From the IMG/VR virus record IMGVR_UViG_3300045988_095445: a stretch of DNA of 64,000 nt; one strand, 5' to 3'. The stretch is from a virus. Shown one piece after another: positions 37,550 to 37,625 of this stretch (position 1 is the first letter of the stretch; each line of letters begins with the position of its first letter). Under the pieces are notes generated by a model. That model worked only from the letters and a program-made list of their open reading frames with translations, had not been told where the DNA came from and did not search any database. The translations under genes and the position numbers were made by a program.

Positions 37550-37625
37550 TGGCAGCGGAGGTGGGATTCGAACCCACTCCCGAGGTTTTAGAGACCCCTG
37601 CGCTAAACCATTACGCTACTCCGCA
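37550..37625 (-). tRNA. Amber suppressor tRNA, anticodon CUA (reads UAG); probably Gln-accepting.
   Basis: Cloverleaf: acceptor TGCGGAG/CTCCGCT, G73, CCA. D-arm GCGT-AATGGTTTA-GCGC. Anticodon stem GGGGT/ACCTC with loop C-T-CTA-A-A. T-arm GTGGG-TTCGAAT-CCCAC. The 3' acceptor strand and discriminator (TCCGCT-G) are shared with the phage tRNA-Gln(UUG). Confidence 0.7.

Follow-up and report, generated by a model that had tools for sequence, protein, structure and literature searches.

Probable reading of TAG as glutamine, with a phage-encoded tRNA-CUA, in a 64-kb window of a large phage genome

The stretch of DNA analysed here, hereafter the window, comprises 64,000 nucleotides (nt) of the virus record IMGVR_UViG_3300045988_095445, and the present work concerns the use of the codon TAG in its genes together with a tRNA of anticodon CUA encoded at positions 37550 to 37625. 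As judged by sequence comparison, UAG must be read as a sense codon for full-length protein to be made from about a quarter of the genes, and is apparently not needed as a terminator. We consider it very probable that the window comes from a phage of genetic code 15, in which TAG specifies glutamine (Gln), and that this phage supplies its own tRNA-CUA, by which the output of its TAG-rich genes may be limited. The phage itself is undescribed, whereas recoding of TAG to Gln in phages is already well documented. Near-identical contigs of 146–149 kb suggest that the window is part of a genome of about 148 kb, and the same gene order is found in many contigs of 110–200 kb from IMG/VR, ENA and collections of metagenome-assembled genomes (MAGs). 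Nearly every gene of the window is located on the minus strand.

Reading of TAG in the genes of the window

The genes and blocks that bear on the reading of TAG are the following (TAG counts are in-frame and after the start codon; the basis of each assignment is in brackets):

683..2221, minus strand: DnaB-type helicase, 2 TAGs inside the DnaB N-terminal and DnaB_C domains (Pfam, PDB alignment)
5271..5897, minus strand: ThyX thymidylate synthase, 1 TAG inside the Thy1 domain (Pfam, PDB alignment)
6174..7085, minus strand: GIY-YIG nuclease-domain protein, 8 TAGs, 40% of its Gln-type codons (Pfam, codon counts)
7734..13899, minus strand: TAG-free block of ATP-dependent DNA ligase, a 68-amino-acid (aa) open reading frame (ORF), topoisomerase subunits A and B, and RNase H
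14319..15728, minus strand: endolysin (Phage_lysozyme2, Amidase_2 and SLH), 9 TAGs, inside a TAG-free block (Pfam, homologue alignment)
15731..16585, minus strand: NAGPA (phosphodiester glycosidase) and SPOR cell-wall protein, 2 TAGs (Pfam)
39078..43545, minus strand: tail-fibre module of five genes with 2, 5, 2, 5 and 2 TAGs (Pfam)
43938..45059, minus strand: AAA ATPase, 1 TAG (Pfam)

The Pfam domains DnaB/DnaB_C, Thy1, GIY-YIG, lysozyme plus amidase, and NAGPA are continuous over the in-frame TAGs, and three of the five tail-fibre genes match Mtd_N above its curated cut-off or nearly so. About 22 of the 97 genes called on the minus strand contain TAG, and the frames are broken by TAG only, never by TAA or TGA. 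TAG positions are also held in common with relatives, 144 of them at an identity of at least 90% and 15 at 60–90%. When genes were called on the minus strand under code 11, with TAG as sense and with TGA as sense, the coding coverage of the whole window was 0.75, 0.88 and 0.76, respectively. The corresponding values were 0.50, 0.98 and 0.51 for the lysis block, 0.61, 0.96 and 0.61 for the fibre block, and 0.97, 0.97 and 0.98 for the ligase-gyrase block. Sums of ORF length over six frames did not discriminate between the codes because off-frame ORFs lengthen too, and were dropped for the strand-specific calls. The 97 called genes terminate in TAA (70) or TGA (27), in a count where the caller read TAG as sense and where three short or truncated ORFs have a TAG 3–6 codons before their end. 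Alignment of ThyX and DnaB to PDB structures demonstrated domain continuity; their TAG columns are variable (R, T, A/E) and silent on residue identity.

Much of this had been anticipated in an original prediction made from the letters of this DNA. It claimed at least 16 TAG-interrupted genes, a number that is exceeded here, and its TAG counts for the helicase, ThyX, the GIY-YIG protein, the phosphodiester glycosidase and the AAA ATPase were the same on recounting. The "2 or more" TAGs it gave to the endolysin are in fact 9, and the tail-fibre genes, for which it had 2 to 5 or more, have the numbers listed above. Codon counts agree with it that topoisomerase A and B (GyrA, GyrB), ligase, RNase H and PhoH are free of TAG, TAA and TGA were found to be the real stops as it had proposed, and the tag ORF of the transfer-messenger RNA (tmRNA) does end in TGA. 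The comparison of tables 15 and 11 that it recommended is the rise in coverage from 0.75 to 0.88. Two of its entries, an "RHH" gene and a "Rep-like" gene with 4 TAGs, could not be identified; a plausible plus-strand gene at 63521-63934, which by eye has the look of a winged-helix or replication-initiator protein, contains 1 TAG.

The identity of the inserted residue had been proposed from a single pair of tail-fibre paralogues, and the alignment is as stated: TYTD*QIAARISSTYK in 39078-40415 faces KIDQKIATAISSTYK in 40441-41613, placing TAG opposite Gln. A database search with the endolysin gave full-length relatives with Q at most TAG columns. Under the standard code these relatives do not yield their database proteins, so that they are recoded too and their Q may reflect the gene caller; codons were therefore compared instead of residues. 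Against recoded relatives, endolysin TAGs are found opposite CAA or CAG at columns 40, 77, 104, 139, 146, 159, 225, 255 and 274, and at conserved columns the exchange between TAG and CAA/CAG runs in both directions between genomes. A further 15 endolysin homologues were taken from bacterial genomes and MAGs, mostly of Oscillospiraceae and other Clostridia and including one complete genome. Fourteen of these have no in-frame stop and one (L093) has a single TAG, and at the four conserved TAG columns of the phage endolysin the standard-code homologues have CAA or CAG in 12/13, 11/13, 8/9 and 9/13 cases, with mixed residues at the variable columns.

The same result was obtained window-wide. Over 23 TAG sites with well-aligned flanks in relatives of less than 90% identity, the residues opposite TAG favour Gln (log-likelihood -44.5) over Glu (-74.7) and Lys (-75.4), which is the tabulation that the original prediction had asked for. 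TAG is interchanged with CAG or CAA at 8 sites in the relatives L006–L009, at a protein identity of at least 90%, and under code 15 this would look like synonymous C/T transitions. At the TAG position of the AAA ATPase, L007 has CAG, and of 11 relatives that are more distant 7 have Gln. An apparent TAG-to-Lys signal in the relative L049 was rejected as it came from antisense ORFs, TAG and AAG being the complements of synonymous Leu codons. The residue at TAG is best explained as Gln, an assignment that no longer hangs on one paralogue pair given the codon-level alignments to both recoded relatives and standard-code homologues.

The suppressor tRNA and its longer relatives

The suppressor and the elements to be compared with it are:

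37550..37625, minus strand: amber-suppressor tRNA, anticodon CUA (ARAGORN, Rfam, cloverleaf fold, synteny in relatives)
37215..37529, minus strand: gene for a 104-aa basic protein, 1 TAG (gene call)
38063..38091, minus strand: candidate sigma-70-type promoter, TTGACA-17-TATAAT with TG extension (consensus match)
45653..45804, minus strand: ordinary phage tRNA-Gln(CUG) and tRNA-Gln(UUG) (ARAGORN)

The original prediction had placed a CUA tRNA at this position without stating its strand, and two programs agree on it: ARAGORN returned a 76-nt tRNA-CUA, and the Rfam tRNA model scored 59.8 bits (gathering score 29, E 2e-10). The minus-strand sequence of the tRNA is UGCGGAG-UA-GCGU-AAUGGUUUA-GCGC-A-GGGGU-CUCUAAA-ACCUC-GGGAG-UGGGU-UCGAAUC-CCACC-UCCGCU-G-CCA, for which the minimum-free-energy fold is a plain canonical cloverleaf with a 9-nt D-loop (AAUGGUUUA) containing GG, an anticodon loop C-U-CUA-A-A and a variable loop of 5 nt. 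The first pair of the acceptor stem is a U1.U72 mismatch, followed by G2-C71, and the 3' end comprises the discriminator G73 and an encoded CCA. An identical suppressor, or a 1-nt variant, is found at the syntenic place in the relatives L006–L009. The sharing of TCCGCT and G73 with the phage tRNA-Gln(UUG), pointed out earlier, is correct on sequence comparison, and the acceptor stem of this tRNA is the one closest to that of the suppressor (11 of 14 positions).

The amber suppressors supE (a tRNA-Gln with CUA) and Su7 (derived from tRNA-Trp) of Escherichia coli are both charged with Gln by glutaminyl-tRNA synthetase (GlnRS). They combine CUA, and thereby U35, with G73 and a weak or unpaired 1:72 pair with U1, all of which are common to the window suppressor, where the Gln-acceptor-type positions comprise U35, G73, the unpaired U1 and G2-C71. 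It is because of U35, G73 and the unpaired first pair with U1 that charging with Gln is proposed. The window tRNA differs from supE and Su7 in being a phage gene with an encoded CCA, and in that it would serve genome-wide coding rather than the rescue of a mutation. Two more distant relatives of the suppressor (L013 and L034) presumably resemble E. coli tRNA-Gln in their UGGGG... start, as judged by eye. In agreement with charging by GlnRS, other phage tRNA-CUAs have been cited as substrates of the E. coli enzyme and suppress UAG in E. coli extract (10.1101/2025.10.30.685624).

The candidate promoter at 38091-38063 is located 437 nt upstream of the suppressor, and no other 12/12 match was found on this strand of the window; in relatives, matches of at least 10/12 are found 40–140 nt upstream of their tRNA-CUA. 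Because of this 12/12 promoter, host RNA polymerase could make the suppressor without phage factors, which suggests a host-polymerase transcript, possibly an early one. At the level of 11/12 or better there are 13 matches on the minus strand, where chance would give about 3.8 on the two strands combined. The majority are located in the tRNA array (46400-55300, minus strand), in which tRNAs are 200–400 nt apart and the spacers contain small ORFs and repeated near-consensus promoters (TTGAAAA-N-TATAAT). Downstream, the ribosome-binding site of 37215-37529 begins 8 nt past the suppressor. The TAG of this gene is private to this genome and is TGG in four near-identical relatives, so that it is weak evidence for recoding and should not count. 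Its protein had no Pfam or PHROG family, and PHROGs also gave nothing for the proteins flanking the tRNA. Suppressor tRNAs in recoded gut phages have been described in association with theta ribozymes, which are hepatitis delta virus (HDV)-like, and only 4.5% of those tRNAs encode CCA (PMC10879173). The window suppressor is likewise a suppressor tRNA of a recoded gut phage, but it encodes CCA, is followed closely by a ribosome-binding site, and has no HDV-like match beside it or elsewhere within 36-56 kb at E up to 0.5.

The tRNA-CUAs of relatives occur in two forms, a short one as in the window and a long one of 88–98 nt, and in the relative L010 the syntenic tRNA is of the long form. Long forms were sampled from IMG/VR by DNA pattern (at least 119 stretches), a pattern-biased sample in which frequencies are not population estimates. 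An additional hairpin, inserted between anticodon arm and T arm, was found in 15 of 20 unique tRNA-CUAs with a long variable region (L010, L012, L013, L034, L176, L177, L193, L201, L205, L209, L218, L229, L254, L277 and L283). Its stem is 3–5 bp and its 7-nt loop, N-U-(C/U)-U-G-A-N, is that of the tRNA-Gln anticodon, with U33, U35 and G36 invariant and A37 in 14 of the 15. Covariation is seen in the three inner pairs of the stem (GGC/GCC, GCC/GGC, TCC/GGA, TGC/GCA, CCA/TGG, CACGG/CCGTG), after shuffling of the variable regions such hairpins number 0.14 of 15, and RNAfold predicts a five-arm cloverleaf for two of the tRNAs. A corresponding arrangement is found in long opal suppressors (tRNA-UCA; loci L285 and above), where 11 of 13 contain the Trp anticodon loop, N-U-C-C-A-A-N, in the variable region. 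An unbroken 5-bp stem closes this loop in 7 of the 11, as opposed to 0.04 of 13 in shuffles, and in three others a 4-bp stem is interrupted by a C.A mismatch beside the loop. The loops are not swapped: among the sampled long forms there was no CCA loop in amber suppressors and no YUG loop in opal suppressors.

Both GlnRS and tryptophanyl-tRNA synthetase (TrpRS) depend on the anticodon. It is plausible that the anticodon proper would be left to read the stop codon, and that the cognate anticodon, needed by the synthetase as an identity element, would be displayed on the extra arm. Alternatively, it could be a relic of anticodon-arm duplication, the long tRNA could swap which hairpin stacks as the anticodon arm, or the arm could be a binding site for another factor. 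A Ser-type identity of the long-arm suppressors was considered and found unsupported, as at the sense-strand TAG sites of their loci, only 10 in number, Gln remains the favoured residue (Q -25.9, K -32.1). Full-text literature searches returned no description of a natural pseudo-anticodon arm. The nearest precedent is an engineered one, amber suppressors with a "pseudo-anticodon" variable arm (Mukai 2020, PMC7590224), in which the extra arm also copies the cognate anticodon stem-loop and is placed in the variable region as an aid to the synthetase; that design needed a synthetase fused to a second anticodon-binding domain, whereas the phage forms are natural. We tentatively entertain, while thinking it somewhat doubtful, that a natural pseudo-anticodon arm is a feature of the longer members of one phage suppressor-tRNA lineage, and that the window suppressor, which lacks the arm, represents this lineage in its minimal form; it may either never have needed the arm or have lost it. 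If true, this would explain how stop suppressors keep their identity for the anticodon-reading GlnRS and TrpRS, and would offer natural parts for genetic-code engineering.

Distribution of TAG and alternative explanations

The share of TAG among Gln-type codons is very uneven. TAG makes up 33% of them in lysis and cell-wall genes (11 TAG, 22 CAA + CAG), 32% in tail-fibre genes (16 and 34) and 40% in the GIY-YIG gene (8 and 12), compared to 3% in ten replication and nucleotide genes (3 and 102) and 1% in fourteen RNA-repair, NAD and other genes (1 and 148). Lysis and fibre genes taken together differ from the two TAG-poor classes, whose combined share is under 2%, by a Fisher odds ratio of 30 (p 1.3e-14), a strong split of the kind that had been predicted between large replication genes and structural genes. 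Endolysin and NAGPA, with 11 TAGs between them, are located on the same strand between the TAG-free PhoH and the TAG-free RNase H, topoisomerase and ligase genes; as these co-oriented neighbours are TAG-free, the pair is set apart by recoding and not by position.

In the mechanism proposed, the suppressor would be charged with Gln by the GlnRS of the host and would compete with host release factor 1 (RF1) at UAG. UAG-rich genes would then give full-length product only after enough charged suppressor had built up, with the result that the endolysin, the tail fibres and the homing-type nuclease would be delayed or limited, and UAG-free genes would be translated from the start by unmodified host machinery. 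Because the promoter is of the host consensus type, any delay would stem from accumulation of the suppressor and competition with RF1, and not from late transcription of the tRNA. Such gating of late expression has been put forward as a hypothesis by Borges et al. (10.1101/2021.08.26.457843) and agrees with the codon distribution.

Several observations weigh against this interpretation, some with respect to timing and some with respect to the residue. As to timing, TAG is also present in the early-type genes for DnaB, ThyX and the AAA ATPase, and the suppressor follows a 12/12 sigma-70 promoter. The occurrence of TAG in DnaB and ThyX and the apparent host-type promoter would equally suit a recoding that is real and yet no timing device, an alternative that we hold to be unlikely although it deserves serious attention. 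In a neutral version of it, acquisition of the suppressor would have been followed by codon capture in an AT-rich genome, with UAG drifting into genes that are dispensable or evolve fast; in a host-directed version, the suppressor would disturb host translation or defence proteins through read-through of host UAG stops. Consistent with this, the TAG-rich fibres, endolysin and GIY-YIG gene are also the classes that evolve fastest, near-identical genomes exchange TAG for CAG and the reverse freely, and both the occurrence of suppressors in phages that are not recoded and the idea of host perturbation have been discussed (PMC12386605). On the other hand, the 11 TAGs of endolysin and NAGPA within a co-oriented TAG-free block are hard to explain by position or drift alone, the bias toward lysis genes recurs in unrelated recoded clades, and TAG occupies strictly conserved Gln columns of the endolysin.

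As to the residue, overall similarity does not clearly mark the tRNA body as Gln-like. Over its whole sequence the suppressor is nearest, among the 30 other tRNAs of the window, to tRNA-Trp (71%), and in a comparison with about 1100 phage tRNAs the mean identity of the five most similar per isotype was 0.709 for Met, 0.704 for Trp and 0.701 for Gln. The suppressor has C3-G70 in place of the G3-C70 of E. coli tRNA-Gln, many bacteria form Gln-tRNA via transamidation instead of charging by GlnRS, and at variable columns TAG faces K, E, N, R and S, as expected there and uninformative. It is conceivable on such grounds that the tRNA decodes UAG as Trp, Lys, Glu or pyrrolysine, and we regard this as very improbable. 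Trp would be favoured by the resemblance to tRNA-Trp, which likewise has G73, and by the one TAG that is TGG in close relatives; Lys or Glu by the columns at which TAG faces them; and pyrrolysine by the ARAGORN label "tRNA-Pyl", which is given solely from the anticodon. However, Glu and Lys score far below Gln over the 23 sites, Trp is outside the eight best-scoring residues listed, and the standard-code homologues have CAA or CAG at invariant or nearly invariant columns. Moreover Su7, despite its origin from tRNA-Trp, is mainly charged with Gln because of U35. Typical of tRNA-Pyl are a 3-nt variable loop, a compact D-loop without GG and a lengthened anticodon stem, none of which is present in the suppressor, and no Pfam match to PylS or PylBCD was found among the window ORFs scanned, including every ORF of at least 250 aa. 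Within the limits of the window, pyrrolysine is thus excluded by the ordinary tRNA architecture and by the absence of Pyl genes among the ORFs scanned.

Finally, it is barely credible that the in-frame TAGs are true stops in pseudogenes, split genes or assembly errors, with an irrelevant tRNA-CUA: a truncated-looking NAMPT fragment (23123-23569) and a UDG-like ORF (57138-57458) do end a few codons past a TAG, and the TAG of 37215-37529 is private, but frames broken by TAG alone, TAG positions shared with relatives, conserved catalytic domains downstream of TAGs and the same architecture in dozens of independent assemblies all speak against it, and the essential helicase, endolysin and all tail fibres would be destroyed.

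Other elements, known systems and significance

In total ARAGORN called 31 tRNAs and a single tmRNA in the window, every one of them on the minus strand. The tmRNA (48038-48353, 113 bits) encodes the tag peptide DNDYFENYLAA. A class II tRNA-Tyr(GUA) at about 45089-45176 on the minus strand was missed by default ARAGORN, gave only a sub-threshold tRNA-Sec match in Rfam and overlaps an apparent 5' extension of the AAA ATPase frame; with it included, the phage encodes tRNAs for all 20 amino acids. Also missed by default was a tRNA-like gene of 117 nt at 45367-45483 (minus strand; Rfam tRNA 49.8 bits), which has a 42–55-nt insertion in the anticodon arm and no encoded CCA, and which is called Lys(CUU) with a 42-nt intron if introns are allowed. 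It is similar to the phage tRNA-Asn in its D arm, its variable loop (AUGUC) and G73, the insert contains two hairpins with the loops UUGUUAA (Asn-like) and UCUUUAAC, and the gene is conserved in near-identical genomes only. Other unusual tRNAs, all on the minus strand, are Ser(AGA) at 47060-47147, Ile(UAU) at 54848-54923, and a second Leu(CAA) without encoded CCA at 54712-54785. The type-P1 twister ribozyme is matched over its full length at 51830-51887 (minus strand; E 4e-9), with 51.7 bits as against a gathering score of 67.2, and the match stops 5 nt before the 5' end of tRNA-Ser(GCU) (51732-51824). As with the theta ribozymes, a putative self-cleaving ribozyme here abuts a phage tRNA; it differs in being of the twister class and on the 5' side.

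The TAG-free block at 19093-31000 on the minus strand contains genes for RNA repair and tRNA maintenance (Thg1 tRNA-His guanylyltransferase, an AAA_33 kinase, two metallophosphoesterases, an RNA ligase and RlaP) and for NAD salvage (NAMPT fragments, NAD synthase, a PRPP-synthetase-like protein and isochorismatase). A possible connection to Thg1 is seen in the U1:C72 mismatch of the phage tRNA-His (51014-51089). NAMPT is present as fragments in different frames at 22632-23584 (minus strand), and the relative L005 has a single gene of 489 aa. The UDG-like ORF on the minus strand, with a GQDPYH motif, stops after about 106–119 aa; together with the NAMPT fragment at 23123-23569 it may represent pseudogenes, frameshifts or interrupted genes. 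Two further genes were noted:

31874-34315 and 34726-36246, minus strand: vault-like protein and its DUF2828/DUF7788 neighbour (domain matches)

The former, of 813 aa, has major vault protein domains (MVP shoulder 6e-18, Vault repeats and Band 7), which are unusual in phages, and adjoins the DUF2828/DUF7788 protein, which is conserved in about 80 IMG/VR phage contigs. At the right end of the window consensus promoters are found on the plus strand at 58380-58408 and 62972-63001, one of them 12/12, and this end marks a point of divergent transcription.

The host is probably a gut member of the Clostridia, of Oscillospiraceae type and using the standard code. This is suggested because the bacterial genomes with the closest endolysin homologues belong to Oscillospiraceae and other Clostridia, and these homologues have no in-frame TAG; two relative contigs of about 148 kb have been binned as "Eubacterium" and "Oscillospiraceae". 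When 20 kb was compared to GenBank phages by megablast, the sole match was 150 nt of tRNA-Trp in phAss-1 (80%), and a protein search with topoisomerase A gave nothing closer than 35% identity among the best 15 matches listed. phAss-1, of the proposed Phassvirus, is a 136-kb phage of the human gut in which 41 ORFs contain TAG and three suppressor tRNAs are encoded (PMC10607447). Both are gut phages with in-frame TAG and suppressor tRNA genes, but the window has one suppressor where phAss-1 has three, and phAss-1 is not among the 15 topoisomerase A matches.

Gut phages of code 15 include crAss-like and Lak phages and the Garnet, Amethyst, Jade, Sapphire and Agate clades (10.1101/2021.08.26.457843; PMC9523058), and insertion of Gln at TAG has been proven by metaproteomics for crAss-like phages (PMC9523058). 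According to Borges et al., lysis and structural genes are recoded, replication genes are variable in this respect, and 26–71% of genes are affected depending on the clade; in Agate phages a group I intron endonuclease is heavily recoded (10.1101/2021.08.26.457843). The features of code 15 found in the window are TAG within conserved domains and aligned with Gln, a tRNA-CUA, gene ends of TAA or TGA and an enrichment in late genes. Further likenesses to these phages are that about a quarter of the genes are recoded, that lysis and structural genes are recoded and replication genes variably so, with these modules scattered through a large genome, that a homing-type nuclease is heavily recoded, and that the host is probably a Firmicute, apparently on the standard code. 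It differs in that no release factor (RF2 included) or aminoacyl-tRNA synthetase was found among the ORFs of its 64 kb, and in lacking a GenBank phage match at the nucleotide level save for the 150 nt mentioned. Among the clades of Borges et al., one of the large Firmicute-associated ones may include this phage; no terminase, from which its placement might be judged, is found in the window.

The recoding phenomenon itself will be no surprise to the specialist. For annotation, translation table 15 is needed, as under table 11 the helicase, ThyX, a nuclease, the endolysin and every tail fibre fall into fragments. The phage and its relatives add a large Clostridia-associated family, represented by dozens of contigs of 110–200 kb in IMG/VR, ENA and MAG bins, to the catalogue of amber-recoded phages. 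In this family a heavily recoded lysis cassette is embedded in an unrecoded block of early type, which makes it a clean case of what the lysis-timing hypothesis predicts.

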